Assembly (NCBI GenBank): GCA_963723515.1
Contig: CAVRQT010000002.1
Coordinates: 384,001 to 448,000 of the forward strand
Length of the DNA: 64,000 nt
Direction of reading: 5' to 3'
Source of the DNA: Vulcanimicrobiota bacterium
GTDB taxonomy: Bacteria; Vulcanimicrobiota; Vulcanimicrobiia; Vulcanimicrobiales; Vulcanimicrobiaceae
Position numbers and translations under genes: made by a program. Below are positions 18,662 to 50,682 of this stretch, piece by piece; positions within the stretch are counted from its first letter, which is position 1; each line of letters begins with the position of its first letter. The notes beneath the pieces are model-generated. The model was not told the DNA's origin and ran no database searches. It saw nothing but the letters and a program-made list of their open reading frames with translations.

Positions 18662-20341
<1,680 letters not shown>

Positions 20342-22987: not shown

Positions 22988-24802
22988 CTAGCGCAGTTTG
23001 AAGTTCGCCTTCTTTAGATAGGTCGCGATCGCGTCCGCGATTGCTGCGCGCCCGTCCGCAGACGGCTCAAGATCTTCGGTAGCGAAGAGCGTGTTCGAGT
23101 GCGGGCGACGTTCGATCTCACGGAACGCCGGGTACAAATTCAAGATGCGGAAAGCCGTCGCATCGAGTGCGCGCAACAGATTGTTTTCGGCCGAAACATA
23201 GTCTGTGGCGAACGTAAAGTCGCGGTTCGTCATCGCCGGAGCGTAGCCGATCTGCTCCGTGCGATAGAGTTCCTCATTTGGAGAAACCTCCCAAGCGAAG
23301 GGCATCAGCACGCCCAGCGCAGCGCGATGCGATTGCGCGAGTGCACTTGATACAGGCGCAAACGCTCGCCGCACGACGTTCTGCCACGCTCCCGGCGACT
23401 GCACGACGAGCGGGTTGCGTTGAAAGCGTGACACGCCGTCGCAGTCGGCGACGAACGAATTGATCAAGAAGATCACTTGGTCGGCGCCTGCAAGCGTCGC
23501 GGAGGAGGCGTCGGGACACGCCACATGCAGCGGAACGACGCTGATTTGCTTGCCACCGACAAGCGTTCCGCGGAGGCGTTGCTCTAAGAGTCCGGCGATT
23601 GAATCGGCAAAACCGCTCCCATACCAGAGCAGGTAGTTTCCTTCGATGACGATGCGATAACGATTGGGCGCAGCCTCAAAGGACGACAACTGATTGAAAG
23701 CATGCCGCCGCTCGCGCATGGTGATGAGATACACTTTGCGTTGGATCGCATCGGCGACCGCGATGCGGCCATCGCTCTCGTTGACCGCGAGCCCCATCGG
23801 CGCCGAGAATTGCTGGCGCTCTAAACCAAGCGTCGCATCTTCGGGTGGTGTCGTGCCGATGTATTGCGGATACAGTTGCGCGATCGTTGCCACCGGAGCG
23901 AAATCTTCAACGTAGCGAACCGCCCCATCGAGCAAGTCGCCGTAGATGATCGTCTGCGCGGAGAGCGCTGCGATGCTATAGGGGTGGCCAAGCGGTGCGC
24001 CACCCTGCACGCTGTTCATCGAAAGTGGGGGGCTGGCATTGTAGGCCATCAGCGCGGTCTGTGATGACAGATCGTATCGTACGATGCGGTCTTTGACGGC
24101 GATGTAAAGGTAATCCGTCGTTCGGCTGCGAGCGCAGGCGACGCCGGTGATGAAGTTTACGCTAAAGTCAAGTGGAAGGCGGAGCGTCGTCAAGACGCCG
24201 CTAGCGTCGAGAACGCGCAGGCCGTTTCGCTGATCCGCGATGTAGAGAGCACGTCGGTCGCCGCAAATCGCTAGTTCACGCGGATAAGCCATCCGGTTCA
24301 CCTGCGGCGCTCCATCTTCAGAACCGGAGGTGCCGCACCGCCCGGCGACAGTTGATACGACGCCATCGCGAATAAAGCGAATGCAGTGGTTAAATGTATC
24401 GGCGACATAGAGCGCGCCGTCGCTAGCGGCCGCCAACCCTGCGGGCTGGTTAAACTTCGCTGTTGACGCCGGCCCGTCACGGTAACCGCCTTCAAACGAC
24501 AACGCGCCGGACGCCGGGCCAGGCGATCCGGCAACCGTTTGCACGCGGCCGTCGCGTGCTATCATGCGAATTTCTTGCCCCGCAGCGTCCGCAACATACA
24601 ACGTTCCGTCCGCCCCAAACGCGATGGCGCTCGGCATTTCGAATTGCGCTTGTGTGGCAGAACCGTCAGCAATGCCCGCATAGCCGCTACCCGCAAGAAC
24701 TGCAACGTCTGCCGCAGCCACCGTTTGAGCTAGCGCAGGTTGAAGCGTTAAGATTGAGAGCCAGAACGCCATAAGGAGCGAAGATGCTCTCAATGCAGCC
24801 AC
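22988..24802 (-). CDS. Secreted NHL-repeat + degenerate SGNH/AlgJ-like domain protein (paralogue 1)
   Basis: NHL repeats (FNQPAGLA..LYVADTFNHCIR); C-domain GNYLLWY and DLEPS in place of GNS and DxH. Start may be TTG 24793. Confidence 0.8.
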   Translation of the reverse strand: MAALRASSLLMAFWLSILTLQPALAQTVAAADVAVLAGSGYAGIADGSATQAQFEMPSAIAFGADGTLYVADAAGQEIRMIARDGRVQTVAGSPGPASGALSFEGGYRDGPASTAKFNQPAGLAAASDGALYVADTFNHCIRFIRDGVVSTVAGRCGTSGSEDGAPQVNRMAYPRELAICGDRRALYIADQRNGLRVLDASGVLTTLRLPLDFSVNFITGVACARSRTTDYLYIAVKDRIVRYDLSSQTALMAYNASPPLSMNSVQGGAPLGHPYSIAALSAQTIIYGDLLDGAVRYVEDFAPVATIAQLYPQYIGTTPPEDATLGLERQQFSAPMGLAVNESDGRIAVADAIQRKVYLITMRERRHAFNQLSSFEAAPNRYRIVIEGNYLLWYGSGFADSIAGLLEQRLRGTLVGGKQISVVPLHVACPDASSATLAGADQVIFLINSFVADCDGVSRFQRNPLVVQSPGAWQNVVRRAFAPVSSALAQSHRAALGVLMPFAWEVSPNEELYRTEQIGYAPAMTNRDFTFATDYVSAENNLLRALDATAFRILNLYPAFREIERRPHSNTLFATEDLEPSADGRAAIADAIATYLKKANFKLR

Positions 24803-26610
24803 GGTTTTTGTCGCTCGAGCGATTGCGCTATCACGTCCATGACACGGCTGCGCCCAAGCTTACTCAAATGAAGGTCGTCGGTTGCAAACAGCGTGCCGTC
24901 ATGCGGCGCTGACTCAAAATTTCGAAAAGATCCGAACGTATTGACAACCGGCGCGGGAACCGAGTTAAGCGCGAGAAGCCAGTTGCCTTCTGCGCTTCGA
25001 TAGTCTGACGGAAACGCGTAATCGGCCGGCGAGAATTCGTAGTATCCGATGTTCTCTCGGCGATAGAGCACTTCCAGCGGTGAGAGTTCCCAAGCCATCG
25101 GGATCAAGAGCAGCAGCGCCTTTACATGCGCGCGCGATAGCGCAGCGACAGTCGTGCTATATTGCGAGGCGATCGTCTTCTGCCATGGACCGGCCCGTTG
25201 AGCGAGCGCAGGATCGCGCTCGAACTCCCCCCTGCCGTTGCAGTCGATGTTATACGCATTGACGATGAGGATCGCCAAATCGACAGCGCCCGTGGCAAGC
25301 AATTCGGCATCGGGGCAGCGGCTGTAAAGGTCGCTTACCTTAACAGTTTTTTCGCGGAGCTCCCGATCTGTAGCAAGTCGTTCCTCAAGCAATCCGGCTA
25401 TGGAGTCGGTGAATCCGGCGGAGAAGAAGGCGAAGGAATTCCCTTGGATTGCGATCCGATACTGACGGGGGCCGAATTTCAATGCGCCAAGCGCCGTCTG
25501 GTAGGCATGGCGGTGCTCGCGCAACCGTAGAAAAACGATCTTTCTCTGAATTGCATCGGCGACGGCGATGCGGCCATCGCTATCGATTGCTATACCCATT
25601 GGTGCGGAAAACAACCTCCGATCTGCGTGAGCAAATCCCAGGGTGGAGTTCTCAGGAGGCGCACCGCCGGCGTATTGCAGATGCGGAAGCGGAATACCGG
25701 CGATCAAAAAATTTTCAACGTACCGCAGCGACCCGTCGTGCAGATCGCCGTAAAGGATGGAGGCTTGCGAAAGCGCGCAGATGCTGTAAGGACGACCGAG
25801 TGGCCCGCCGCCCTGCACGCGGTTGATCTCGATCCCGGCGCCGATATCTTGAATGATCGCTGCCTCTCGCGAGCGTAGGTCGTATCGGACGAGTCGATCA
25901 ACGTTGGCGACATACAACATGGTGTCGTCGCCCGAACCTACCGCGGAAACGCCGGTGGCGTTGCGAAAATCGGCATTCGACGGCGATCGAATGGTCCGTA
26001 ATGTGCCCGGCGGGCTGAGGATTCGAACGCCGTTTTTCTGATCCGCGATGTAGAGAGTTCCGTCGACCGAAAGCGCTAATCCGCGCGGATAGGCGAGCCT
26101 GCCGACAGGGGGTCCACCATCGGCGCTGCCTCTAACGCCGCAACGTCCGGCGACAGTTGAGACGACGCCACGCCAAATCAGGCGAATGCAATGATTGAAC
26201 GTATCCGCAACATAGATTCCGCCGTCGCGGCGAACGGCTACGCCGGACGGGTGATAGAAGCGCGCGAATTTCGCATCCCCATTTCGAAAACTGCCCGAGA
26301 CAAAGAGTCCCGAACCGTTTGCATCACCACCGCCGGCAATCGTTGTGACTGATCCATCAGGCGAAAGCGCGCGAATTCTTTGAGCCGCGGCGTCGGCAAC
26401 GTAAAGAATGTGATGCGGGCCGAACGCAACGGAGTCCGGCATCAAGAACGTCGCCCGTGAACGCGCGCCATCGGCATAACCGGCCGCTCCCGTTCCTACG
26501 ATGCTCCCAATTGTTAGCGGCGCGATACTCTGCGCCGCGGATTTCGAAATTGTAGCCCATAGAACGCAAATGCAAAACAAAAGCGTAACAACGGAACGGA
26601 CCGTATTCAC
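24790..26610 (-). CDS. Secreted NHL-repeat + SGNH/AlgJ-like domain protein (paralogue 2)
   Basis: NHL repeats; IAIQGNSFAF nucleophile block and TDDLHLSKLG (DxH). GTG start inferred. Confidence 0.8.
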   Translation of the reverse strand: MNTVRSVVTLLFCICVLWATISKSAAQSIAPLTIGSIVGTGAAGYADGARSRATFLMPDSVAFGPHHILYVADAAAQRIRALSPDGSVTTIAGGGDANGSGLFVSGSFRNGDAKFARFYHPSGVAVRRDGGIYVADTFNHCIRLIWRGVVSTVAGRCGVRGSADGGPPVGRLAYPRGLALSVDGTLYIADQKNGVRILSPPGTLRTIRSPSNADFRNATGVSAVGSGDDTMLYVANVDRLVRYDLRSREAAIIQDIGAGIEINRVQGGGPLGRPYSICALSQASILYGDLHDGSLRYVENFLIAGIPLPHLQYAGGAPPENSTLGFAHADRRLFSAPMGIAIDSDGRIAVADAIQRKIVFLRLREHRHAYQTALGALKFGPRQYRIAIQGNSFAFFSAGFTDSIAGLLEERLATDRELREKTVKVSDLYSRCPDAELLATGAVDLAILIVNAYNIDCNGRGEFERDPALAQRAGPWQKTIASQYSTTVAALSRAHVKALLLLIPMAWELSPLEVLYRRENIGYYEFSPADYAFPSDYRSAEGNWLLALNSVPAPVVNTFGSFRNFESAPHDGTLFATDDLHLSKLGRSRVMDVIAQSLERQKPWLH

Positions 26611-26681
26611 GACTTGCGACGCGCGTGGCTTAAAGGGAGCGATGTCGCTCAACGGAAAGGCGACGTCGTTTGCGTTTGGAC

Positions 26682-28631
26682 ATGAGACCAATTGGATTGT
26701 ATCTCTGGTTGCTCGGATGCTTCATTGCGGTGAGCAGTCTTGCAACAGGCGCTGCGACCACTTCCATCGTCTCAACGTTGGCTGGCTCAGGGTTCTCCGG
26801 TAATGAGGATGGTTCGGCGCAGGCGGCCCAATTCGTCATGCCGGCCGGACTGGCCGAGGACGCGGCGGGAAACCTCTTCATTGCCGATGCCGGCGGACAA
26901 CGCATCCGTGTATTGACGTCGGACAACACGGTGCGCACGATCGCCGGTTCAGGACCGCTGCTTTCATCAGGGCTGTGGAGTGCAGGCGGATACCGCGACG
27001 GCTCCGTTGCGATCGCGCAGTTCAATCATCCATCGGGCATTGCAATCGGCTCGGATGGCGCACTCTACATTGCCGACACGCTCAATCATTGCATCCGCAA
27101 GATATTCCATGGACAAGTGACGACCTTTGCGGGTCGTCCGCCGTTCTCAGGTCGAGACGATGGCGAAAGGACGATCGCCACGTTCAAGAATCCACGCGCC
27201 TTAACGTTTGCTGATGACGGAACGCTGTTCGTGGCCGATTACGGCGTGGGTTTGCGGGAGATTTCGCCGCAAGGAATCGTCCGAACCGTATCTTTGCCTC
27301 CTGGAATCGATCCGCGGATCGTCGCACTGAGTCTCTACCAATCAAACGGTCAACGCGTGCTCTTCATCTCCACGTGGAATGCACTGCTCGCGCTCGACGC
27401 GCAACTGCACCCTATCTGGATTCGCCGGATCACGCCGCCAAAAGCAGGCCCTAGACTGTTCAACGAAATCGGTCAATTGCGCTCCGCAGCAATTACGGAA
27501 AGCCGCGAGGCGTTTGGCCATCCCTTCGCGTTGAGCGCGCTCGATGGAGGAGGCGTCCTCTACACCGATCTGCACACACACTCGATTGGATACTTTCGTC
27601 GCGACGGTACCCAAACGACCACGGCGATTCTCAGCCATTGGCCGATTCCGGATGCCGCCAACCGCAGCGGCGGCTATCATGATGGGCCGCTGTCAGCGGC
27701 CCAATTCGATGCGCCACTCGCGATTCTCCAGCGCCGCAGCGGCGCGATCGTCGTCGCTGACAGCGGAAACCGGCGTTTGCGCGAGTTCTTCTTCGATCCG
27801 AATTCGCGGCTGCCGACGCCTCCGCCGTCGCGGCATATCGCACGTAATGATACGCGAACGTCTGGCGAGATCAATCTACATGCACTGCTCTTTCCGCGCC
27901 TTAGCCGTCGCTTCTATCGCATTGCTTTTCTTGGAAATTCCTACTCATATTGGGACACACGCTGGAAACAATCGATCGAAGGCCTGGTTGAGCAGCGGCT
28001 AAACGCGGACAGAAAGAAGCTCGGCCTTCGTAAACCGGTGAAAGTGACGCTACTGTTTCCTTATTTCGAAACTCTCGCGTCGGTTGAAAGTTACGCGCGC
28101 GAAGCGCTCTCACAGCGCCCATTTGATGCTGTGATTTGGCAAATCAACCAACAAACGGTTGCGCTCGAATACGGTCGCGAGCTCGCGCGAAGCGCACCCG
28201 GCGCTTCCTCGCGGCAAATTACCACCGCATTTGCAACCTTTTGGCAACCGCGCTTGAGAGCATCGCTCAAGAGAATTCGGCTTGAACTTGAGCGCAACGG
28301 CGTGAGGCTCTTTATCGCCCTGCATCCGATCGGTCTGGAGTTAACGCCACTCGAAGACGCAGAGCTCGAAGAGTACGAGGAGCCGTTCTACCCGACGAAC
28401 GGCTTTACGATTTGGTCGCAGTCCGACATCGGGCAGCAATTGAAAGCCGCTGTACGGGCCGCAGGCGTGCCATTGATTGACGCGTATCCCAAATTCATCG
28501 ACGCGGAACGGTCGCCGATGCGAAGGCCGCTCTTCGGCACATTGGACGAGCATTTCTCAATAGAGGGTCGCGTCCTAGCGGCGCGCATCATCGGCGATTA
28601 TCTCGAAGCGGCTCGTCCTTGGATGCGGTAG
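26682..28631 (+). CDS. Secreted NHL-repeat + SGNH/AlgJ-like domain protein (paralogue 3)
   Basis: Signal peptide, NHL repeats; IAFLGNSYSY and TLDEHFSIEG. Confidence 0.8.
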   Translation: MRPIGLYLWLLGCFIAVSSLATGAATTSIVSTLAGSGFSGNEDGSAQAAQFVMPAGLAEDAAGNLFIADAGGQRIRVLTSDNTVRTIAGSGPLLSSGLWSAGGYRDGSVAIAQFNHPSGIAIGSDGALYIADTLNHCIRKIFHGQVTTFAGRPPFSGRDDGERTIATFKNPRALTFADDGTLFVADYGVGLREISPQGIVRTVSLPPGIDPRIVALSLYQSNGQRVLFISTWNALLALDAQLHPIWIRRITPPKAGPRLFNEIGQLRSAAITESREAFGHPFALSALDGGGVLYTDLHTHSIGYFRRDGTQTTTAILSHWPIPDAANRSGGYHDGPLSAAQFDAPLAILQRRSGAIVVADSGNRRLREFFFDPNSRLPTPPPSRHIARNDTRTSGEINLHALLFPRLSRRFYRIAFLGNSYSYWDTRWKQSIEGLVEQRLNADRKKLGLRKPVKVTLLFPYFETLASVESYAREALSQRPFDAVIWQINQQTVALEYGRELARSAPGASSRQITTAFATFWQPRLRASLKRIRLELERNGVRLFIALHPIGLELTPLEDAELEEYEEPFYPTNGFTIWSQSDIGQQLKAAVRAAGVPLIDAYPKFIDAERSPMRRPLFGTLDEHFSIEGRVLAARIIGDYLEAARPWMR

Positions 28632-31240
28632 CGCCAAACGCTCTGTCCCTTCGCATTGTCGCCGTTCCAAAGAAGGCTTGCGACGGCGCGGACGGTTCCG
28701 TGTGGATGCCGCTGTAGCGCAACGAATGTGGCAAGTGGCTTTCCGTTGGCAATGCACGATATGAGCGGGCGATTCACGCCCGTGTAGCCGCGCACGTCAC
28801 TTCGATCGATCCATATCGGGTGAAGCTTCATGCTGCTCGGGCCACATGACACTCCCATTCGAATTGAAGCGGTGGGCGCCAACGGCATTGTGGATTGCAC
28901 TCGGATGCCGACGATGTCTGTAGCGGTGCGATCGACGCCGCGTGAAACGATGTCGCCGGAGAAAACGACCGTTGTTGCCGTCCTCGTCGATGAACGCAAA
29001 GACGCGCTCGAAAGCGACTGCATTCCGTCCAACGTTGGAAGGGCAAGCGCGACCCCGCTGCTCGATCGCGCGATCGGTCGTTCGTAATCGAAAACCGGCG
29101 GCACATTCGTTGAGGTGAGCAGCGCCACCCCGCCGCCGAGGCGCAGCAATGAAGCAAAATCGGTGAGCGGATGAACTGCCTCCGAAACTGCGACCACCTG
29201 GCGACCCCGCGGTGCCATATGGTACGAGAAGGTGCGCGGATAGACCACGATGCGCCGTGCTGTGTTAGGGACGAGATCGAGATCCGAGAGTGGCGGAGCA
29301 TCGAGCATCGCGTGCTTCTCTGGCGCGTCGGTCACTCGGAAGACTGAGACCATACCCTCGCGCGGTGCGCTCTGCCAAACAATATGCGCAGCGGGCATCG
29401 TAACTCTCTCATGATCTCTATAGCGAGTCCAAGCATTCATCAGAATGTACCGAGCGCCGATGTTGGACACCAGCTCACGTTGAGCGTGCGGGTCCGGCGG
29501 CAAAAAGAGAGAGCGCACGACGTAACCGGGCAACTCGAATTGCACCGCGTGCGGCGCGACAAGCGTCGCGATCGCAGTGCCGCGTGCCACATTGGCGCGA
29601 ATCCACGCCGTCGCTTCCTTTAACCCATAGACCGGTTCATCAACGCCCCACCGGCTCGCGCTGCAGCGAAAGCTGAGGCAGCCAAGCGTGGCAGCCGAAG
29701 CGTACGGAAAGTAAAGCGCACTCCATGTGAACGTCAGAACGCTCGCCGCCGCTACGATCGCTACTCGGAAACGCAGACGTGCAACCGTTATAGCATAGCC
29801 GGCGATGAGCTGTAGAAACGGCGCCATATAAAACCAGTAGTGCTGCAGATAGAACGCAGTCGGTGCGACGAAGAGTCTGCCGGCAGCGACGCCGCCGCTA
29901 AGCCACAAAATGCGAATGTCACGGCGCAGTGCGGCGGCTACGATGCTCACGATGAGCAGCAAGATCGTAATCGGATCGGTGTGGATGAACGTTTGCGTTA
30001 CCATCGTGCCGACGCGCGTTGCGATCGATTGCGTCAGATGGTAATACTGATCGAAGAGCAGCCGCGCCACGAGCACGAACGGCAACCGATGCGCCATATC
30101 GATCCACAAGAACGGCCAAGCGAAGACCGCACCGAAAAAGGCCGCCACTGCGCTCCCTAAGCCAGTCAAGATCGCGCGCAGCGGCGTAATCTTCGCCGCT
30201 AGCAGCAAGAGCACGGTGCTCACGAAGTACAATCCCGCCATGATGGGATTTCGTACGCCAACGGCGATCACACCGAGCAGAATACCGATCAGCAGCGCCG
30301 TTTTGCTTTCGTCTCTCAGTGCAGTAATCAAAAAAACGGCGCTCCAGCATGCGAACGCCACGTAGGGAATGTCAAGATAGAAGGACGACGCATACGCCAA
30401 GGCGAGCGGTGAGAAGATAAACAGCGCTGCGGCGAGTGCACCGGCCCAGCGATCAAAGAGCAACGCTCCGAGGCGATAAACTGCGAGAGCCGCCAAGGCC
30501 GTGCAGAGTACTGAAACAACGATTGCCGCATTCAGAGCACCGGTCACCGTCGCTATCGGCAACGCCAAGAACGGATAAAGGATCGGCTTGCTTAGACTTT
30601 CAACGCCCGCAAGTCCGATAATTCCACCGCCTTGAACGGCGATCGGTAACGCGCGCAACGTGTCGACATATCCCCAGCCGAGATAGCCCCAGTTGATGCC
30701 CCCGCCAACTTCGTCGTTGTGAAAATAGTGCGGCGACAACGCAAATACGATCAACGAACAAATAAAGACGAAGAGCGACCCAAGATCCAACTGTACCCGC
30801 AAGCGGCTCACCGGCACAGCGATAAGTTGGAGCGCCGCCAGAATACCGAAAGCGGTGGCAAAAAAAAGTAAGAGCGCGATCCACAACGGTGAGATCGAAG
30901 GCTGCATCGCCTGCAGCGTGATGTCCAACGCTCCCAGCCGATCGTTTGTAACTTCGTACGTGTCATTACCCGAGCTAATAAAGATCGCCGGCACGTCATG
31001 TGTTGCACGCGTGCGCTGAACTATCAGAGGGAATGACGCGAATGTAATCGTCCCGGAAACAAGCGGACGAACGATGATCCGATCGCCGAAGTGCGCTGCA
31101 ACCGGCACACCGTTCGAGACGCGCTGCTGCCATGCCGGAGTGTACTGCGTCTTTGCAGCAGCGAGTGCACCAGCGAAGAAAACGGCTGCCGCGACGATGC
31201 AGGCCGCCGCGGTAAAAGCCCGCGTTGGCGTCTTTACTGC
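28598..31240 (-). CDS. GT-C fold membrane glycosyltransferase (ArnT/PMT, GT39/GT83-like) with extra soluble domains; start uncertain
   Basis: HNDE, SKPILYP, VYRLGALLFDRWAG..LFIFSP, FYLDIP; more than 10 TMs. Confidence 0.72.
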   Translation of the reverse strand, partial: AVKTPTRAFTAAACIVAAAVFFAGALAAAKTQYTPAWQQRVSNGVPVAAHFGDRIIVRPLVSGTITFASFPLIVQRTRATHDVPAIFISSGNDTYEVTNDRLGALDITLQAMQPSISPLWIALLLFFATAFGILAALQLIAVPVSRLRVQLDLGSLFVFICSLIVFALSPHYFHNDEVGGGINWGYLGWGYVDTLRALPIAVQGGGIIGLAGVESLSKPILYPFLALPIATVTGALNAAIVVSVLCTALAALAVYRLGALLFDRWAGALAAALFIFSPLALAYASSFYLDIPYVAFACWSAVFLITALRDESKTALLIGILLGVIAVGVRNPIMAGLYFVSTVLLLLAAKITPLRAILTGLGSAVAAFFGAVFAWPFLWIDMAHRLPFVLVARLLFDQYYHLTQSIATRVGTMVTQTFIHTDPITILLLIVSIVAAALRRDIRILWLSGGVAAGRLFVAPTAFYLQHYWFYMAPFLQLIAGYAITVARLRFRVAIVAAASVLTFTWSALYFPYASAATLGCLSFRCSASRWGVDEPVYGLKEATAWIRANVARGTAIATLVAPHAVQFELPGYVVRSLFLPPDPHAQRELVSNIGARYILMNAWTRYRDHERVTMPAAHIVWQSAPREGMVSVFRVTDAPEKHAMLDAPPLSDLDLVPNTARRIVVYPRTFSYHMAPRGRQVVAVSEAVHPLTDFASLLRLGGGVALLTSTNVPPVFDYERPIARSSSGVALALPTLDGMQSLSSASLRSSTRTATTVVFSGDIVSRGVDRTATDIVGIRVQSTMPLAPTASIRMGVSCGPSSMKLHPIWIDRSDVRGYTGVNRPLISCIANGKPLATFVALQRHPHGTVRAVASLLWNGDNAKGQSVWRYRIQGRAASR

Positions 31241-32076
31241 TTCGTAAGCACGAATGCGAAATTCAGGTAGATCGCAGGATCGATTTTCGTGCCGTTCTGA
31301 ATTCGGTATACTTTCGGATCCAAGCCGCAGGCCAACGCAGTTTGGATGCAGCGCCGCCAAAGGGCGTCCATACTGTAGTGCCGCCCAAACCGATTCGCAA
31401 ATCCAAAACTGGCAACCGTTGCTGCGGCTGCATCGAAGCCGACGGGCGTTTTCGAATAGAGGGGATCGGTTAGGTTGATGTACTCCTCGTGAAGATAGAG
31501 CGGTAAAATCGCCGCTTTGCGCCCCCGCTTCAGCACCCGTGCAGCTTCCTGCAAAAACCGTGAGTCTGCATCACCTTCGAAGTGGTCGAACGAGCAGTGC
31601 AGCGTCATTCCATCCGCACAACTGTCCGGCAAATCCATGGCGCATGCATCGCCGCCCAAACGGTCGTGATGCAAACCCCCGTCGAAAGCTTGATCCTGAG
31701 CGATTACGGTGTGGCCGCGGCGACGCATGATTTCGGCGAACAACGATTGACCGGCAGCAACGTCAATTAAGAACCCGTGTGAGGGCAGTTGCAAGAGGTC
31801 AACGGAAACTTGATGCTCGAGATATTTCTCGTTACGATTGACGATGTAGGAGAGAAGCGGATATTTTGCGTCGCGCACCCACGCTGAATAGCGCGCTGGA
31901 TCAACGACGTACTCACCCCCAACGATCGCCGGATAGCGCTGGTTCAAAGCGTGCCAAAGTGCATTGTAGTCCGGCGTTGCGAAATCGGTACGCATCGGAT
32001 GCTCTCGCAAGTATGCGTTGGCCCGCGCACGACTGTAGAGCGACGCTGACGCCTTCTTTCCGTAGTAGAGCAACAT
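31234..32076 (-). CDS. Class I SAM-dependent methyltransferase
   Basis: LIDVAAG, GDACAMDLPD, SFDHF, EAARVLKRG. Confidence 0.78.
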   Translation of the reverse strand: MLLYYGKKASASLYSRARANAYLREHPMRTDFATPDYNALWHALNQRYPAIVGGEYVVDPARYSAWVRDAKYPLLSYIVNRNEKYLEHQVSVDLLQLPSHGFLIDVAAGQSLFAEIMRRRGHTVIAQDQAFDGGLHHDRLGGDACAMDLPDSCADGMTLHCSFDHFEGDADSRFLQEAARVLKRGRKAAILPLYLHEEYINLTDPLYSKTPVGFDAAAATVASFGFANRFGRHYSMDALWRRCIQTALACGLDPKVYRIQNGTKIDPAIYLNFAFVLTKQ

Positions 32077-32109
32077 CTTTAGCGTGAAGCGATTATCGTT
32101 TTGCCGCCG

Positions 32110-33453
32110 TCATTCCGTATCCGGCGGTTTCATGCTCGGACGGCGATTGAGAAAGTCACGTGCTTTCAAGCGCGTCGCGAACGGCGTAAACGGGCTCACC
32201 GGTTGCGTGTAATTGAAGAAATCTGACAGATCATCAGCGCGGGCATCTGTTGCGCCAAGCGAAGGGATCTGGAGCGTCGTCTCCATGAAATGCAGGACGC
32301 TGCCGAACTCGTGCTGGGCATGCGAGACGTAATGCTTCTTGACATATGGTGAGACAACAATCATCGGCACGCGAAAACCGAGTCCTTCAAAGTCGAGTTG
32401 CGGCGGAGCAACATGGTCGTACCAGCCGCCCCAATCGTCCCAGAGGATAAAGATCGCCGTCGTGGGCCAGAATTGACTTTGCCCGATCGCGTTGACGATC
32501 GATGTTACCCATTGCGGTCCCGTGTTGCTGCCGGCTCTGCCGTGGTCTGAATTCAAATAGTCCGGCGTGACCCACGTGATCGTCGCAAGATTGCCGGCCG
32601 CAATATCTGAGAGCACTTTCGTTTCCGGCGAAATCACTTTTGTGGCCCAGTCGGGACCATAACGGATGTCCTTGATCGCATCGTATGCGGACCATAGGAC
32701 GCCGATATCTTCATTTGGTCCGGTGAACGCCGGCGCATATGCATGCCAACTGATTCCGAGATGGTCGAGCTCATCGCCCATCGATTGATAGGTGTAGCAT
32801 GGCGGCGGTCCGTTGATCACTTGACCTTGCGCATTGAATTGCAACATGTACGCGCCGGCAGGCGAATCGCAGCCCCAGGGAATGACGACCTGCGGCGGAG
32901 TCCCCATCAAGGGCAGATCGATCGTGTTGTTTGATTGTCCCGCAATCAAATATTGATGCGCAACGAAACTAGCCCCGTCGTTTGATTGAAAGAGATCATC
33001 GGCCAGCGCATAGGAGGACGCCATCGCCCAATACGGCGCAATCTCCGAGCGATTCACATGCGCGTATGCGTAGTCAGGTTCGCTGCGCGGAAACGACACG
33101 TTCAAATCGAATCCGTTCATCGCGCCGCCGTTGTACGAGTAGAGAAAGTCTCGGCGCGAGTGACCGAGATCGTTGCCGTCTTCGAGGTTCACTTGGTGAA
33201 GCAAAACGGTGGTGCCGTCGTGCGCCTTGCCGCTTGCGGCCGTGTTTGCTCCCGGAAACCCGCTGAAGAGGTTATCGAAACTGCGGTTCTCTTGGATGAT
33301 GACGACGATGTGCTGAATCGGCGACTTCATTTGCGGCGTTGGCCCCTGCGGAATCGAGCTCGACGTGCCGCCGCCTGAACAGGAACACAATGCCGCAATC
33401 AGGGGAACGACCCCGGAAGAGAAAAAGAGATTTCTGCGTGCGTGTAATTTCAT
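32110..33453 (-). CDS. Phosphoesterase (AcpA/PLC, alkaline-phosphatase superfamily) lipoprotein
   Basis: Lipobox LCSC; IQHIVVIIQENRSFDN, SDH, WDDWGGWYDHV, GFRVPMIVVSPY. Confidence 0.88.
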   Translation of the reverse strand: MKLHARRNLFFSSGVVPLIAALCSCSGGGTSSSIPQGPTPQMKSPIQHIVVIIQENRSFDNLFSGFPGANTAASGKAHDGTTVLLHQVNLEDGNDLGHSRRDFLYSYNGGAMNGFDLNVSFPRSEPDYAYAHVNRSEIAPYWAMASSYALADDLFQSNDGASFVAHQYLIAGQSNNTIDLPLMGTPPQVVIPWGCDSPAGAYMLQFNAQGQVINGPPPCYTYQSMGDELDHLGISWHAYAPAFTGPNEDIGVLWSAYDAIKDIRYGPDWATKVISPETKVLSDIAAGNLATITWVTPDYLNSDHGRAGSNTGPQWVTSIVNAIGQSQFWPTTAIFILWDDWGGWYDHVAPPQLDFEGLGFRVPMIVVSPYVKKHYVSHAQHEFGSVLHFMETTLQIPSLGATDARADDLSDFFNYTQPVSPFTPFATRLKARDFLNRRPSMKPPDTE

Positions 33454-35777
33454 GAATCGAGTGGCGGCGCAACGCTTGCTTCCGTACGTCGTCGCTGCAA
33501 CCTGCGGATTCTTTGCAGTTGCACCGCTCATTCTTGCAAGCGGCATCCCTGCGTACCAACACGATTGGTCGTTTCCGTTTACAGTACAAGGCGTGAAGAG
33601 CGGCCTCGTCGGCCACTTCGCCCTCTGGGACGAGACCGGCTTAGGTCGACCCAATCCGCTGGCCAGCGCGAATCCGCTGCTCGTGCTCCTCTCGGGCCTC
33701 GGTTTGATTTTTGGACCGCTCGCGGGAGCGAAGATTGCAATCGGGGGCGCGACGATCCTCTCCTCATTGACGGCTGCGTATTGCGCGCAACGCGTGATTT
33801 CAGGCGATCGGCTCGCAGCCGCGCTCGCCGGCATCTTATATGCGACATCACCGGTAATTTTTAATAAAATTGCCGCCGGGCAAGTGACGTTTTGGTATGC
33901 CTACGCACTTCTACCGCTGATCTTCGAGCGCTCGCGGGCCGCGCAATTCGGAAACCGTGCGGCGATATTTTGGACGGCACTGCTGTGCGCCTTAACAACG
34001 ATTCAGCCACAGTTCGCGCTGTTCTCTCCGATTGTTGCCTTAAGCGCTACGTTGCCACTGCGCAACACACGCACGATGCTGATCGTTCTTTGCGCTTCAG
34101 TCACAGGCGTGCTCATTGCACTCGCTCCGACCGCTTGGGCAATCTTCGCCGCGCGCAGCGACCTGCTCGCGCAATTTCCTTGGCCGCTCCAGAGCTGGGA
34201 GGTTGCGCACTCCGCACCGCTGCCACTCGCGCTGTTGACATCACATTACATCATTCCGTATTACGCTACGGCGCTGCATGGAATGACGACCTACGCATTA
34301 GCAGTCGCAGCAGCGGGCATTTTCGGTACGGTGCTTGCGATTCGCCGGCGCGATGGCATCCCACTGTTGGTCCTAATCCTCGTTGGCCTTTGCTTTACGA
34401 CGGGGACCGTCGGTCCGTTGAAGTTGCTTTGGAGTTGGATGTTCGCGCATTTCGAAGCGGCAGCGTCGTTTAGAGAACTCTACAACGCCAACGCCTTGAT
34501 TGCCCTTGCGTACTCGTTAGGTGCCGCGGCGCTGGCTCGTGAAGCGCTCATCGGCAAGTTGCTCGCGCCGGCGCTCGTCGTATTCTCGGCCGTGCCAATT
34601 CTTTTCGGCGGCATCGCATCGGTCGTACACAACGTCGTTGATAACGGCCCATCGTTTCGCGCCCAAATTGCAGCCTCGCCGCCGGGAAGAATTCTCTATC
34701 TTCCTTCTTTGACGCCACTCGTACGCAACGGACACGAACCTGGAGGCGTCGATGTCTTCGCAACGGGCGATTCAAGCCATCTACCAGCGACGGAATATCC
34801 CGCTCAGTTTCCCCTGACGACGATTGCGCTATCCGGCAATATCAAAGATCACTGGTGGCAAGAACGTCTTGAGAAATTGGGCATCACCGCAATCGTCATG
34901 CGCCCAAATTTACGCAGTGAATTCGATGTGGACACTGCGGGTACTCGTCCAGCGCCGAACTGGCGATTTGTTCAGGTCCGCGGGCGTCCGCTCGTCCAGC
35001 TTTTGCCACGCGCATCCTTGCAGACGATTTCTTTTCGTGAAGCGCTCACCCAATGGGGAGCTTGCTGACGACCTCGGCGTTCTGCCGCAGAAGCCGGGAG
35101 CTGCGGCCGTGATCTTGCCGAGCCCGAGTTTACAAACCGACAACCCGAATCAGGATTGGGTCGCCTTGGACCGCTGGCGCAACCTCGCGCCCGATCCGGC
35201 AAATTCATTGCGCGACGGTGTCGTGACGATGTCTCGCACAACGTTGACCATGACATTACCGCGCGGGGAATGGTGGTTGCTCGCGGCAGCACGCAAACCG
35301 CTTACGCTCTCAGAAAGATCGCAAGACCGGCAAATCGTTGCATCGCAAGCGCAATGGATTCCGTTGACGACGTCCGGCTCTGTGCTACGGATTCGCGCGA
35401 ACGGAGGGCCGGCGGCCGTTTACCGCATCGCTTCGGGGTCGAGCTTCTTGCCCCACGGCCCTTTCGCCACCGGCATCGCGGTTCGCGAGAGCAGGCCATG
35501 GCCGTGGATTACGCACGTCGCCTTCGACCGTATTCCGGGAAGGCCCGCACTGTTGATTTTTCGCGACCGCTTCTCTGCCGGCTGGCACATCGACGGCGCA
35601 CGCACGCTATGGCACGGCATAGCTGATGGGTATGCCAACGCCTTTCTCATCGCCGATGCGAAGCCGCAAATCTCGATTGTCTATGGCGCGCAATCGCTTT
35701 TCGCTATCCTTGCCGTGCTTAGCGCGCTTGCCTACGCCGCCACGATTTTTGCGATCATCCGATTGCATTACGCGTGA
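33452..35777 (+). CDS. Large GT-C-like membrane protein (AftD/DUF3367-like), frameshift near 35050
   Basis: YQHDW, LW..TGLG, LYATSPVIFNKIAAG, FRELY; many TMs; C-terminal F..RFSAGW..ADGYANAF plus a terminal TM. Confidence 0.65.
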
Positions 35778-36982: not shown

Positions 36983-38059
36983 CTGCGCTGTTCGATCGAA
37001 CGAAAACGATCGCTCAGCGTAGCGCCGCGCTGCCGTGGCAACTTCATGAGAGTAAGAACCATCGGCGCGGTATCGGGCACGCGCGGCTTCGAGCGCTGCG
37101 CACCATGCCGCGGCATCGTCAGCATCTTCGACGATCTCTCCGCGCCCCTGTTCCGCCATCTCACGCATCGCGCCCGCGTCGGTTGCGATGATCGGCGTTC
37201 CGGCAGCGAGCGCTTCCGCGGCAACGATTCCGAAAGTCTCCCAGCGCGACGGAACGAGCAGAACGTGGGCACGGGACATCAGACCGGCGATCTCATTTCG
37301 GTCTCCGGAACGCGCTAGAGTGACATTCGCCAATGCAGAAAGACGCCGCACATCCTCAACGAGCGGCCCGCTGCCGATGACGATAAAGTGCATATCGGCT
37401 CCATAACGCTGGTGCGCAAGTTGAATAAGGTTGACCAGCCGATCGATTCCCTTTTGAAAATGGAACCGTCCGACGAAGAGCGCCGTGAACGTGTGGGGGC
37501 GCAAAGGCTGAGGTGTGAACGCGTCAAGGTCGATGGCGATGGGAACGACATGCACGTTCTGCGCTCCCACGGAGCGCAGGTATTCTGCGTCACGCGAGTT
37601 CAGCGCATGAACGGCGGCAAAGCGTTGCATCATCCGCCTTCCGACCCAATTCCAAGCCACGTCATGCAAGCCGCCGAATCGGATGACGGCGTGGTGTCCG
37701 GAGACGAGCGGCAGATTGATTTTCCTTGCAGCCTCGAGTACAACGACGTCTTGAAACGCGTAACCGTTATCGAAATAGCAAAGGTCGGCGCCCTCGATCG
37801 CGCGCGCCAATTGCCGCGCTGACGGCAATCGCCCTCCCGATCCGGGAAGCGCGGGCCCTTTGAGCGTCTGAAGCGATATTCGCGCGTTTTGCGGAAGGTC
37901 GAGATAGGACTCCTTAAAGCGCGACGGTCGCGTTCCGGTATGCACGATGTGCAGCATTGCATTTCGCGTTTCGAGATATCGAGGCCAAAAATCAACCAGC
38001 CAACTGCGAACGCCGCCCACTAAAGCGACATCAAGCGGCGAATAAAACGCAATTTTCAA
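36947..38059 (-). CDS. Glycosyltransferase family 4
   Basis: GGV, FVGRFHFQKG, PSRWETFGIVAAEALAAGTP. Confidence 0.9.
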   Translation of the reverse strand: MKIAFYSPLDVALVGGVRSWLVDFWPRYLETRNAMLHIVHTGTRPSRFKESYLDLPQNARISLQTLKGPALPGSGGRLPSARQLARAIEGADLCYFDNGYAFQDVVVLEAARKINLPLVSGHHAVIRFGGLHDVAWNWVGRRMMQRFAAVHALNSRDAEYLRSVGAQNVHVVPIAIDLDAFTPQPLRPHTFTALFVGRFHFQKGIDRLVNLIQLAHQRYGADMHFIVIGSGPLVEDVRRLSALANVTLARSGDRNEIAGLMSRAHVLLVPSRWETFGIVAAEALAAGTPIIATDAGAMREMAEQGRGEIVEDADDAAAWCAALEAARARYRADGSYSHEVATAARRYAERSFSFDRTAQLFDVLLESAIR

Positions 38060-38110
38060 GCAAACACTCCTCAGAGGGAACCAATTACGGGCAACGTATC
38101 ACGCACACCC

Positions 38111-39457
38111 ATGCTGAGTCCGGCGGCACATCGGTTCAAAGCGGAGCCTGATTCAACATCGCCTGCCGCGCACCGAACTGTCGCGGTATTCGCCGAGTAT
38201 TTTCCTCCATACATCGGTTCTGACCGGCGTCTGTTTCATCTGGCGCAGAACCTGCAGCGTTGGACGCCGGAGTACTTGATAACCCCGCCGTTGCGCGTCA
38301 TCACCCGGCGTTGTGAGCCGGCACTCTTTTCATACGCGAATAACTTTCGCGGTGCAGACAGCACCGTCTATTTCGGCGGCATCCGGGGCAGTTACCTCAG
38401 CGTGCCAAGCTTCGTTCATCATCTTTACCGTTGCGGCGGACTCCGTCTTCAGCTTGCATACGCGTTATCGATCCCAATACTCGTTCGCAAGGCGATGCGC
38501 CGAATTGCAACGATGCGGCCGGCTGCGGTCGTGGTCGGACACCCGAGCTTTATCACGGGAGTCGTCGGCATTCTTTGTGCCAAACTCGCCCGGCTTCCGG
38601 TGCTGCTCGATTGCCCTGATGCTTGGACGCCGCTTGCAATTGAAACATCTGGGCACAAGGGAACGTGGATCCCCAAAGTGATGCGGCGCATCGAACGATT
38701 CGTCGCTCGTGAAGCGGACCGTATCACCTGCATCACCGCGCTCCTGGCGAAGAGTATCCGCAAAGACGGTGCGACTGCGCCGGTAGCGATTGTTCCGAAC
38801 GGCGTTGACCTGCGCAACTTTCCCGAGCGCAACGGCGATGCCAGAACAGCACGAGAATTTCGCGTCCTTTACTCGGGACGACTCGAGCGGTGGGCAGGGA
38901 CCTATGACTTAGTCGAGGTCATCGATCGCGTCTGTTCCCGGATCGGCCATCGTGCGCACTTCATGTTCGTCGGCGACGGAGGCGGCGCAGATGATCTGCG
39001 CAGAGACATCACAGCGCGCAACCTCGACCGATATTGCACCTTCTTCGGCTTCCAGCCGTACGAAGCGATGCCCGGCCTGCTCGCACGGTGCGATGTGGCG
39101 GTGCTGCCGTTTCCGAACACCGATACAACCCGTGTCTCACTGCCATGCAAGATCTTCGAATACATGGCGATGGCTAAGCCGGTCATTACGGCGGACCTGC
39201 CCGGGATCCGTGAAGTCATCCCAAATCAGGCGGCAATCTGGATCAAAGACATTACCGCGAGCGCCCTTGCGGAAAAAATCTTGGAGCTCGAAAGCGATCC
39301 CGCGCAATGCAGCCGGTTGGCTGACGCCGGTTATCGGATCGTACGCAGCCAGTTTTCATGGGAATTGCTCACTATGGCGTTCGAAAAAGAGCTTGACACG
39401 CTCAGCCCCCAGCCGCTCGAACAACGCGCGCCCGCGCTGGAACTCGTTGCCTCCTAA
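38111..39457 (+). CDS. Glycosyltransferase family 4
   Basis: EYFPP, VPNGVD, YSGRL, PCKIFEYMAMAKPVI. Confidence 0.9.
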   Translation: MLSPAAHRFKAEPDSTSPAAHRTVAVFAEYFPPYIGSDRRLFHLAQNLQRWTPEYLITPPLRVITRRCEPALFSYANNFRGADSTVYFGGIRGSYLSVPSFVHHLYRCGGLRLQLAYALSIPILVRKAMRRIATMRPAAVVVGHPSFITGVVGILCAKLARLPVLLDCPDAWTPLAIETSGHKGTWIPKVMRRIERFVAREADRITCITALLAKSIRKDGATAPVAIVPNGVDLRNFPERNGDARTAREFRVLYSGRLERWAGTYDLVEVIDRVCSRIGHRAHFMFVGDGGGADDLRRDITARNLDRYCTFFGFQPYEAMPGLLARCDVAVLPFPNTDTTRVSLPCKIFEYMAMAKPVITADLPGIREVIPNQAAIWIKDITASALAEKILELESDPAQCSRLADAGYRIVRSQFSWELLTMAFEKELDTLSPQPLEQRAPALELVAS

Positions 39458-39473
39458 GACCGTTACCAAGCCG

Positions 39474-39938
39474 ATGCGCTTCTTTAGACTGCTCGCATGC
39501 GCCGTTGTCTGTCGTGTTCGCTGCGACGCAGGCCGGGTACGCGGACGAAGGAACGGTCGTCGTTGCGAAAGCCGGTGCTACACCGCTTCTGCTTTGGGAT
39601 GCCACGCCGGTCGTCACGACGATCGTTTCCAGCAAGCAAGAGCGGCAAGCAGCGTTACATCAGTCTCGAATCGCAGGCGATGCAGATCTTAGGCGAACGG
39701 GCTTCCACCCTGCGCCATGCAAAATCGTTGACGATTCGCGCGATCTACCAGAAGACGGGCACGGTCAGCCCCGTTTACGGCACGGCAACGTTCGAAGGCA
39801 TCGAACGCGTTTTTGAATTGACGGCGCCCGCAAACGATGCGCTGATCCAAATCGAAAGAGCTCGCCGACCAGCTTGCGCGCGGAAACGTGCCGCACGGCG
39901 TCATCCTTAACGTCACGGGTCAACTACCGCCGCCATAA
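39474..39938 (+). CDS. Small secreted hypothetical protein, several frameshifts
   Basis: Pieces in different frames: MRFFRLLAC.., LLWDATP.., IYQKTGTVSPVYGTATFEGIERV, ..VTGQLPPP*. Confidence 0.55.
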
Positions 39939-39941
39939 TTT

Positions 39942-41139
39942 TTACGGCACCAAATTGCGGTACACCGTCCCCGCCGCAGCCAACGACGGCGATGCGAAGA
40001 GCACCCAACCTAACGTAACGAAAACGAATGTAGCCGCGACGCTCACATAGTGTAGCGGCATCGATGCGCCCAACCGCGCAAGCAGCGCTTTGGGGACTGT
40101 CAGGCTGTACGCGCGATGAATCGCCAGTCCCGCGCCCTGAAAGAGTCCCCACACGACGAAGTGCCAGCTCGCGCCGTGCCATAATCCTGCGATTGCCATC
40201 ACAATCGTCAAATTGAAGAGCACTCGGCCGATTTTTCGGCGGCTGCCGCCGAGCGGAATAAAAAGGTAGTCGCGGATCCACGAGCTCAGCGAGATGTGCC
40301 AGCGCTGCCAGAAATTTGAAATATTGCGCGCCCAATACGGCCGATCGAAATTTTCGACGATCCGGAAGCCGAGCAACTCCGCGAGTCCAATCGCGATATC
40401 GGAGTAGCCGGTGAAGTCAAAGTAGATCTTTACCGAATACGCGAGCGCTCCCAGCCAGTAATCGCCGGTGCCGTAAGGCGCGCCCGGCGTCAGCAACGGC
40501 TGCGTCAGCGGGGTCATAGAATCCGCGATGATGCTCTTCTTCGCGAGGCCCATCAGAACGCGGTAAACGCCGGCCGCGGCCTGCAGCGAATGCACGTGCG
40601 CGAAGCGGCGAAGTTGCGGCGCAAAGTTCTGGAACCGCTTGATCGGCCCGGCGACCATCGTCGGGAAGAAGAGGGCGAAGACGAAGAACTCGACCGTCTT
40701 AAATTTCTCAATCTTCCCGTAATAGACATCGACGAGAAAATGGATGAACTCGAACGTAAAAAACGAGATCGCGAGCGGGACAATGAGGTTCGCAAGAACG
40801 CCGCCGCAGCCGGCGTGACAGACTCCGAGCGTCGTGCCGAAGAGCTTTCCGTACTTGAAGAAACCCAGAACGCCGACGTTCGCAATGATGCCAAGCGATC
40901 AGAATCAACTTACGTTGCGTGCGTTGCTCGGGCGCCGTTTTGACGAGAAGGGTCGCGCACAACCATGTAGCGACGGCCAGCGCGAGCACCAACAAGATGT
41001 AGATCGGGACGGAGGCGACGTAAAAGACGACGCCGGCGGCCATTAAGAACGCATTGCGCATCCAAATCGACCGGACGCGCGAATAAAGCGCAAAGACAAT
41101 AATCGCAAAGAACGCGAACAGCCAGGTGTTAAAAATCAT
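39942..41139 (-). CDS. MBOAT membrane O-acyltransferase (DltB/AlgI family), about 400 aa, frameshift near 40895
   Basis: MIFNT, FFKY, PLAISFFTF, FFPTMVAGPI, FDFTGYSD, FWQRWHISLS, GLWHGA. Confidence 0.92.
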
Positions 41140-41175
41140 GCCTAACGCTCGGGGCGATTAAAATGGTGCGCCAAC

Positions 41176-41418
41176 TTAGAAGTCGGTGTAGATGAAGTGC
41201 GATTCCGTCGACGGGCTCAGCAAAACCGAGGCGACGATAACGATGAAGAGCACGATTCCGAAGACGATCTTTCCGGCTATGCGCGATGATACGAGCGGCC
41301 AAATTCGGCTGCGCGTCAGATACCATGCCGCGCTCAGGGCATCGGCGGTGCCGACGTCCGTAATTGTCTGCGACGTCTCCCACTCGCCCTGCGAGCGCTT
41401 CGCGAATTCCTCGCTCAT
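41176..41418 (-). CDS. DltX-like single-TM microprotein ending in FIYTDF
   Basis: One TM (IVFGIVLFIVIVASVLL) then SPSTESHFIYTDF*; ends 36 nt upstream of the MBOAT on the same strand. Start uncertain. Confidence 0.78.
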   Translation of the reverse strand: MSEEFAKRSQGEWETSQTITDVGTADALSAAWYLTRSRIWPLVSSRIAGKIVFGIVLFIVIVASVLLSPSTESHFIYTDF

Positions 41419-42743: not shown

Positions 42744-42747
42744 CTCC

Positions 42748-50679: not shown

Positions 50680-50682
50680 GCG

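Follow-up and report, generated by a model that had tools for sequence, protein, structure and literature searches.

A free shuttle peptide, a tail-less MBOAT and NHL–SGNH proteins as parts of a candidate trans-envelope O-acylation relay

The window analysed here is a 64,000-nucleotide stretch from the Eremiobacterota genome (88% complete) of an uncultured soil bacterium, whose phylum is described as diderm in a passage of PMC6664022, and the module genes that it holds are real. On its minus strand, 36 nt ahead of the only MBOAT gene in the genome, lies a gene (41176..41418) for a free, DltX-like candidate acyl-shuttle peptide of 80 residues, with one hydrophobic membrane helix (residues 49–67) and the C-terminal hexapeptide FIYTDF. 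FxYxxF has been called an ‘acyl shuttle’ motif (PMC12148441). This peptide is the only one of 42,244 six-frame segments in the whole genome to end in FxYxxF, where 0.57 would be expected, and the motif by itself is therefore no better than chance. The position and conservation of the peptide, unlike the motif alone, are not explained in this way: the F, Y and F are invariant in all 15 aligned rows, and the peptide was recovered at 80 metagenome loci and has homologs in 9 of 61 related genomes, one of which (G052) gives a weak partial match. A Pfam search with the peptide returned no match, and its match to a DltX profile is faint (E 0.009 among 19 sequences).

The MBOAT (39942..41139, minus strand; about 398 residues; PF03062, 73 bits, above the cut-off) contains GLWHG and has no C-terminal hexapeptide. 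One frameshift near 40900 splits the gene. It is intact in the sister species; G001 has an unbroken ortholog (397 residues, 90% identical). All 120 of its closest homologs contain G.WHG and none carries the hexapeptide; a median of 77 residues follows the catalytic His in this set, as against 140–170 in tailed MBOATs and 62–68 in DltB. Among 42 loci that encode the anchored SGNH protein D, described below, the peptide is present at 30, where every MBOAT is tail-less, while the seven loci with a tailed MBOAT (six plus L083, which was read from its end) all lack the peptide. The free peptide and the MBOAT tail are thus mutually exclusive. The DltB model gives this MBOAT 191 bits against a cut-off of 375 (186–194 bits in all three tested), and by identity it lies nearer to tailed MBOATs (36–40% in the top rows) than to DltB (25–33%). 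In a phylogenetic tree these MBOATs form their own clade outside DltB (support 98/94), although a clade joint with DltB is tolerated (p-AU 0.064).

Next to the MBOAT on the plus strand is a gene for an exported protein of about 155 residues, X (39474..39938), which was overlooked in an earlier note on this DNA. X belongs to no known family, is modelled as an alpha/beta fold and is a candidate adaptor; it carries three frame changes here and is intact in G001 and L110. A profile of X gave no HMM match to two annotated AlgF proteins, and AlgF was not among the matches listed in two fold searches, which does not exclude a relationship. Co-folding of X with the NHL–SGNH protein of G005 scored 0.55 versus 0.01 for the best control, with runs sharing at least 88% of contacts and a partner pLDDT of at least 80. 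This lends weak support to binding: the mark applied is passed by 116 of 157 solved pairs and 2 of 215 mismatched pairs, and scores of up to 0.60 include only 18 of the 157 solved pairs, yet both of the passing mismatches.

Between X and the fusion genes described below lie three GT4 glycosyltransferases identified by profile matches (35774-36982, plus; 36947-38059, minus; 38111-39457, plus), a SAM-dependent methyltransferase (31234..32076, minus; PF08241) that is only a candidate for a link to the module, and a phosphoesterase or phospholipase C-type protein (32110..33453, minus; PF04185), one of four paralogs in the genome and probably a bystander. A GT-C-type membrane glycosyltransferase of the PMT_2 family (28598..31237, minus, start estimated; PF13231, 33 bits) is a candidate builder of the acylation target. 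The polytopic membrane protein at 33452..35777 (plus strand, one frameshift near 35050) is putatively assigned to GT-C from hydropathy and context; neither it nor an intact relative has a Pfam match. It is intact in L110 (790 residues), and relatives occur near the module at three of the 42 D loci and at six of the 80 peptide loci. L110 and L111 retain the block peptide–MBOAT–X–GT4s–putative GT-C. For this part of the locus the earlier inventory largely holds: its single-TM microprotein ending in FIYTDF, its MBOAT (corrected for the frameshift), three GT4s, methyltransferase and phosphoesterase are all there, and of its two GT-C-type transferases the PMT_2 protein stands, while the second is frameshifted and without a Pfam match.

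The remaining genes encode fusions of an NHL propeller to an SGNH-type domain: N1 (22988..24802) and N2 (24790..26610) on the minus strand, and N3 (26682..28631) divergent from them on the plus strand. Each has an N-terminal hydrophobic segment that, judged from hydropathy, is of signal type, unlike the anchor of D. N2 contains GNS419 and D606-x-H608 (numbered from an ORF at 26691; the start is likely 26610), and N3 contains GNS424 and D626-x-H628 (numbered from an ORF at 26670). N1 has GNY where GNS is expected and EDLEPS where DxHxS is expected, and consequently lacks the catalytic Ser (Tyr390) and His (Glu579) and is a pseudo-enzyme. Its losses recur in 3/3 orthologs that are 58–74% identical, and the nucleophile is Tyr in all four N1-type sequences. 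The genome has seven fusion paralogs, three in the window and four scattered elsewhere without linkage to the MBOAT; genomes that have fusions contain 1–10 matches each.

The C-domains are probably of SGNH type. Over 150 representatives (160 aligned stretches), filled triad positions hold Ser in 146/148, Asp in 134/154 and His in 148/154. The block V DxH, with Asp two residues ahead of His, occurs in 134/154 and is missing from N1, and a block III-like Asn is kept in 107/152. In the fusion model, strands alternate with helices, Ser396 follows the first strand and Asp598/His600 precede the last helix, which is the canonical S-G-N-H order rather than a permuted one. Likeness to the alginate enzymes is seen in a match to 4knc (E 5.8e-4), in ALGX matches for 52 of 80 fusion members at E<=0.01, and in matches to AlgJ/X-like proteins at E 9e-10 and 4e-9 that run in permuted order; one of six C-domains exceeds the 26.5-bit Pfam cut-off for PF16822, and N3 scores 22.8. 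The DxH spacing has been assigned to the AlgX family (PMC9487903). An hhalign comparison of the fusions with DltD, against only three DltD sequences, gave a probability of 2.6%. By sequence, the catalytic domain of the fusions therefore appears closest to AlgX/AlgJ and not to DltD. Atlas matches were all GDSL/SGNH, and propeller matches filled the lists of two fold searches.

D itself was also overlooked in the earlier note. It is encoded intact outside the window (contig C3:344061-345110) and lies at a syntenic place in the sister species, where it is 82% identical. G66, D67, S68, D317 and H320 are invariant in 7/7 sequences, the protein carries one anchor helix by hydropathy, and it matches the DUF1574 and Lipase_GDSL_2 models. 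DltD models matched neither D nor the fusions, and hhalign gave D a probability of 2.0% against the same three DltD sequences. Across the 80 peptide loci, the gene that follows the peptide is D in 68, the MBOAT in 8 and a fusion in none, the other 4 running into a contig end. The earlier note had placed the fusions in the DltD/AlgJ slot; the gene order and the intact, syntenic D speak against that placement, and the DltD-like slot would belong to D.

The distribution of these genes ties the fusions to the module. In 61 related genomes, D was found in 12 and X and NHL–SGNH proteins in an identical set of 11, all with D, whereas neither X nor a fusion was found in the 49 genomes without D, five of which (G010, G011, G025, G026 and G033) have other, tailed MBOATs; in these counts seed genomes match by construction, the profile seeds having been chosen at MBOAT loci, and kin are not independent. 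The same-strand run peptide–D–MBOAT–X–NHL/SGNH occurs in G034 and G054, and NHL/SGNH–X–peptide–D–MBOAT occurs in G005. Only 22 of the 42 D loci have an NHL–SGNH gene inside the fetched flank, as do 15 of the 29 long peptide loci. D, X and NHL–SGNH proteins also accompany a second MBOAT, which is tailed and linked to FkbH/ACP, indicating that these three act as a portable downstream unit. As for the earlier note, its MBOAT with a free Tyr shuttle, its SGNH-type C-domain and the expected joint occurrence of fusions and MBOAT module are supported, and its three exported NHL–SGNH proteins stand as exported fusions, one of them without Ser and His.

Each of the known pathways shares part of this organization. 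With DltB–DltX–DltD of Bacillota it has in common a tail-less MBOAT, a free one-helix peptide ending in FxYxxF (FIYTDF here, FIYNEF in two DltX) and an anchored canonical-order SGNH protein with GxS and DxxH. It differs in that the MBOAT falls under the DltB cut-off and is nearer tailed MBOATs, D matches DUF1574 and not DltD, the host phylum is diderm, and X and NHL–SGNH are extra. With PatA–PatB and Ape1 it shares a diderm host, an acyl-CoA-type MBOAT, an anchored canonical-order SGNH protein and, within the cluster, one more SGNH protein bearing an appended domain (PMC12148441), but PatA bears its hexapeptide on two extra helices, and its system has no free peptide, X or propeller. The alginate set AlgI–AlgJ–AlgF–AlgX (also WssHIFG) likewise combines an MBOAT, an anchored SGNH protein, a small periplasmic protein and a soluble two-domain SGNH protein, the catalytic domain nearest to that of the fusions being in AlgX/AlgJ, with DxH. 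The second domain of AlgX is a carbohydrate-binding module, while that of the fusions is an N-terminal NHL propeller; the shuttle here is a separate peptide, the fusion SGNH domain is not permuted, X is unlike AlgF, and many fusion paralogs share one core. AlgX is treated as the terminal transferase in PMC4148444, and AlgF is described in PMC10641220 as an adaptor built of two beta-sandwiches; AlgF bridges AlgJ and AlgX.

The most likely interpretation is a five-component relay that joins AlgI/J/F/X logic to a DltX-type free shuttle, its last step and target being candidates only. First, the tail-less MBOAT would draw its acyl group from a thioester in the cytoplasm. The best DltA hit (TIGR01734) in this 88% complete genome reaches 270 bits against a cut-off of 560, which in a control was exceeded in 2 of 14 genomes; the genome's four carrier domains all lie away from the module, and FkbH was not found in it. 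Because DltA, FkbH and, judged from the carrier domains, DltC were not found, we infer an acyl-CoA-type donor, most likely acetyl- or another acyl-CoA. The MBOAT would then esterify the Tyr of FIYTDF, by analogy with Dlt and PatA chemistry, and the Ser of D, which follows the peptide at most loci, would accept the acyl group as in DltD, PatB and AlgJ. These three steps are very probably right. We only slightly favor the two that follow, in which X, found in the same 11 genomes as the fusions and weakly predicted to bind one, would bridge D or the MBOAT to a soluble NHL–SGNH protein as AlgF does, and the NHL–SGNH proteins would carry out the final transfer in the manner of AlgX, with their propellers selecting the acceptor. 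The complete sequence from acyl-CoA to glycan has about an even chance of being correct. Expansion to as many as ten fusions may allow a single membrane core to supply several glycans, or several positions, with N1 as a putative non-catalytic binder. The target, the least certain part, would be a glycan or glycoconjugate that is made by the GT4/GT-C clusters and faces the periplasm.

A broader version of this relay is possible and more tentative. It would be a modular platform in which two alternative feeds, the tail-less MBOAT with its free peptide and possibly a tailed MBOAT with an FkbH/ACP-loaded (perhaps methylated glyceryl) donor, supply one anchored SGNH protein, the X adaptor and up to ten swappable, acceptor-specific propeller–SGNH writers. 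The fusion SGNH domains would be unpermuted relatives of AlgX/AlgJ, and dead copies such as N1 could be lectin-like subunits or a second, soluble Tyr acyl carrier.

The strongest competitor, which we judge unlikely, divides the proteins into a writer and erasers: MBOAT, peptide and D would form a whole Dlt/PatAB-like transferase, and the fusions would be propeller-targeted esterases like Ape1, which sits in the PatAB cluster and for which appended binding domains are typical (PMC12148441). G004, 93% complete, has peptide–D–MBOAT and neither X nor NHL–SGNH, so the core may work alone, and the canonical residue order, the mostly kept Asn and nearest Atlas clusters of GDSL hydrolases (0.91–0.93) also suit an esterase. 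However, both the DxH motif and the sequence comparisons favor AlgX/AlgJ, which are transferases, a strict link to X would be needless for an eraser, and up to ten fusions per core fits acceptor-specific writers at least equally well.

Independently of mechanism, the window copy might be decaying and no longer work while the system is real in relatives, which we consider slightly less probable still. The MBOAT, X and putative GT-C are all frameshifted in this assembly, and 14 of 46 comparisons with orthologs show a gene broken across frames, mostly a glycan gene, a count that enters one gene twice and may be inflated by overlapping ORF ends; ClpB, SelB, SelA and BipA are whole. Yet another gene, presumably enolase-like, is also split, which indicates assembly indels as the source, the two MBOAT halves match G001 at 78% and 91% identity and contain no in-frame stop codon, and D and the peptide are intact.

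It is improbable that the propellers bind an envelope protein, glycoprotein or lipid as acceptor, with the glycosyltransferases incidental or building a protein-linked glycan. Among the long loci, 11 of the 24 with D and 20 of the 29 with the peptide have no glycosyltransferase gene, the propeller best resembles teneurin-like and NHLRC2 propellers, and the neighbouring GT-Cs belong to the PMT_2 and TMEM260-like families. Glycosyltransferases are nevertheless enriched, at 13 of 24 long D loci versus 16 of the 104 tiles taken as background from this genome, and the count for long peptide loci is 9 of 29; fusion paralogs here sit among flippase, NDP-sugar and Wza/Wzc-type genes, and the MBOAT–SGNH pairs that PMC12148441 lists have envelope polymers as their substrates. 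The proposal in the earlier note that the fusions act on the glycan of the neighbouring enzymes is thus plausible, with moderate support for the link. Its model of direct transfer from the peptide Tyr to the fusions, as in DltD, is the least probable, even if confined to this lineage, where D has left the operon: the MBOAT directly follows the peptide in this lineage (the 8 loci above) and three fusions, two with full triads, lie within 11–17 kb, but both species of the genus keep D intact, motifs included, at one shared location unlinked to the operon, D is present in all 11 fusion genomes, no fusion follows the peptide, and the signal-type N-termini (hydropathy only) and the DltD comparison disagree with it.

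If the relay is correct, it would be a second independent case of the alginate-type logic of two SGNH proteins plus an adaptor, in which the hand-over between the alginate enzymes is itself still a model. Until now, free Tyr shuttle peptides have been reported only from the modification of teichoic acids in Gram-positive bacteria, and PMC12148441 gives non-Dlt MBOAT/SGNH pathways as having no DltX-like microprotein; the present family, in a diderm phylum and with no Dlt donor genes found, is a counter-example. Since its MBOAT is closer to the tailed AlgI/PatA types, the family offers a natural test of how the shuttle motif moves between fused and free forms, and, if propellers set acceptor choice, it could supply programmable O-acyltransferases. 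In databases these MBOATs carry the label AlgI, and the peptide, X and the fusions have no useful name.

The earlier note had proposed that an MBOAT, a free one-helix peptide (a DltX-like acyl-shuttle candidate) and three exported NHL-propeller/SGNH fusions form a glycan acylation system, and an ORF check of the window, which spans C2:384001-448000 of the source genome G000, recovered every gene it named, with corrections. The MBOAT (41139-39942, minus strand) carries a single frameshift near 40900; its ortholog in the related genome G001 is unbroken at 397 aa. The one-helix peptide (41418-41176) ends in FIYTDF, and because about one ending of this type is expected by chance in G000 (0.57 expected, one seen), its weight lies in position and conservation. 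Two further components had gone unlisted. The first, D, is an SGNH protein of ∼340 aa with one anchor helix and GDS and DxxH motifs, related to DUF1574; it is intact in G000 at C3:344061-345110, the same place as in the sister species. The second, X, is an exported protein of ∼155 aa (39474-39938), broken in the window and intact in G001 and in the related metagenome locus L110. For X, 42 homologs were found, and it matches no Pfam domain; its predicted fold is alpha/beta (a confident model, pLDDT 86), and fold searches with this model gave no clear structural match.

The survey covered 61 related genomes, searched with four profiles and one protein, as well as 42 loci from genomes and 80 from metagenomes; two proteins were folded, and a complex prediction and a tree were each made once. 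Overlap among the three locus sets is possible, and kin do not count as independent. In relatives, D sits between the peptide and the MBOAT. Among the metagenome loci (the best 80 of 101, retrieved with the peptide), the gene after the peptide is D in 68, MBOAT in 8, all of the window's lineage, and an NHL-SGNH fusion in none; in 4 it is off the contig. The 42 D loci hold MBOAT in 36 cases, peptide in 30, X in 26 and NHL-SGNH in 22, and the 29 peptide loci of at least 9 kb hold MBOAT in 28, D in 27, X in 24, NHL-SGNH in 15 and any glycosyltransferase in 9. D occurs in 12 of the 61 genomes, and X and the NHL-SGNH C-domain in the same 11; neither is found in the 49 genomes lacking D, and G004 has D without them. 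Seed genomes match by construction, since profile seeds were taken from MBOAT loci, though G003, G013, G015, G020 and G035 match both the X and C-domain profiles and are seeds of neither. The unpublished G020 is counted among the 11 and 12 genomes and possibly among the 42 loci; no claim hinges on it. All five components form one run (peptide-D-MBOAT-X-NHL/SGNH) in G034 and G054, and G005 has one adjacent copy of each. Locus counts and genome survey thus agree with the co-occurrence of NHL-SGNH genes with MBOAT and peptide that the earlier note had expected, though this link is looser than that within the core. The system is real and conserved, and is MBOAT-SGNH in kind. The order peptide-D-MBOAT is also seen in three D loci (L058, L062, L075) whose records bear labels from outside the phylum (Rhodospirillales, Verrucomicrobiia and Janthinobacterium), which may reflect transfer or mis-binning.

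The free peptide and a hexapeptide-type tail fused to the MBOAT are mutually exclusive. The peptide is missing from all 7 D loci with a tailed MBOAT, and none of the 30 peptide loci has one (the MBOAT is cut in two of these, broken in one and absent from the contig in two); the peptide itself ends canonically in 28, in FIYTDS in one, and is apparently frameshifted in one. A fused tail was found in 0 of 120 close MBOAT homologs. Against the DltB model the MBOAT reaches 191 bits where 375 are required, and by identity it is nearer to tailed MBOATs. A tree of 28 rows places the 8 tail-less MBOATs in a clade of their own (98/94), but topology testing does not reject a clade that unites them with DltB (p-AU 0.064), so the Dlt arrangement is possibly convergent.

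In the relay we propose, an acyl group would pass from acyl-CoA to the MBOAT His, to the peptide Tyr, to the D Ser, across X to the NHL-SGNH Ser, and finally to an envelope glycan. We hold the first three steps with considerable confidence; for the entire relay the balance is even. At the membrane the system very probably operates in the manner of Dlt, its shuttle being separate from the MBOAT, and beyond the membrane probably in that of AlgJ/F/X, but it belongs to neither family. Its likeness to alginate acetylation is one of kind: an MBOAT, an anchored SGNH protein, a small adaptor and a soluble two-domain SGNH protein, as in PMC10641220 and PMC4148444. According to PMC12148441, a DltX-like microprotein is absent from MBOAT/SGNH pathways other than Dlt. 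The labels of close homologs assign G000 to Candidatus Eremiobacterota / Vulcanimicrobiota, a phylum that PMC6664022 infers to be diderm. Our literature search found no description of this system.

The fusions of the window are 3 of 7 paralogs in G000, against a single MBOAT; N3 is on the plus strand. The main rival reading makes these proteins Ape1-like erasers, which we consider unlikely, and transfer by the fusions is the reading we retain. N1 (22988-24802) has lost both catalytic Ser and His, as have 3/3 orthologs, and is therefore a conserved pseudo-enzyme; in all four sequences of the lineage (N1 and P0328-P0330) Ser is replaced by Tyr and His by Glu or Gln. An intact paralog adjoins N1. 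Five homologs of 1130-1182 aa (P0043, P0053, P0066, P0090, P0096), each with two C-domain profile matches, are apparently tandem fusions; in some of their C-domain stretches the column of the Ser or of the His is missing, and the second unit of P0043 keeps Ser and lacks His. An NHL-repeat protein with a lipoprotein-like N-terminus and no SGNH match (42721-44247), just outside the reported locus, is kept next to the module in the window's lineage.

In G000 (2.11 Mb, 88% complete) no DltA match reached the cut-off, and our own FkbH profile found nothing. The default donor there would be acyl-CoA, by analogy with PatA as discussed in PMC12148441. Genes for FkbH and ACP, and at some loci TylF, accompany the tailed MBOAT class, which has D, X and NHL-SGNH in common with the tail-less class; the downstream unit would thus serve two donor types. 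This second donor module (FkbH and ACP, in some cases a TylF-type O-methyltransferase) occurs in relatives at L042, L043, L045, L046, L082-L088 and L093, where the MBOAT has a tail whose terminal motif is of the IVYxAF type. The gene content of this module suggests that the envelope is acylated with carrier-borne groups of glyceryl type, as the chemistry of FkbH would imply. MBOATs in open frames of at least 780 aa with a fused FxYxxF tail (L010-L013, L015, L016, L025 (L049:13626-15986)) have a long N-terminal part without a Pfam match, and some of the genomes that carry them lack D, X and NHL-SGNH. A stand-alone adenylation and carrier didomain lies in a small secondary-metabolite locus (G000:C2:312702-315402), next to what we take to be P450-like and response-regulator-like genes.

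The acylation target is weakly constrained: glycosyltransferases are enriched at the loci (13/24 long D loci against 16/104 genome tiles, the profiles being derived largely from G000) yet often absent. Of two GT-C-type transferases claimed for the window, the second lacks Pfam support. Of 46 comparisons with orthologs, 14 show a gene that is split in the G000 assembly, mostly a glycan gene, and the copy of the system in this strain may be impaired. A second X (G000:C2:278000-289500, L037) adjoins an NHL-SGNH paralog and a TMEM260-like GT-C, with a GT4-like gene and Wzc/Wza-type export genes farther along. G000:C4:1-32881 (L039, L040) is occupied by a large polysaccharide cluster, in which a MurJ-type flippase, GT2/GT4 and NDP-sugar enzymes accompany several large membrane proteins without a Pfam match and two further NHL-SGNH paralogs; many of its genes are frameshifted. 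Within the window, a FecR-domain exported protein (18662-20341) is probably frameshifted, because its long Pro-Thr repeat (19111-19524) reads in another frame. The window also holds selB and selA (48802-52023), and the organism therefore probably uses selenocysteine.
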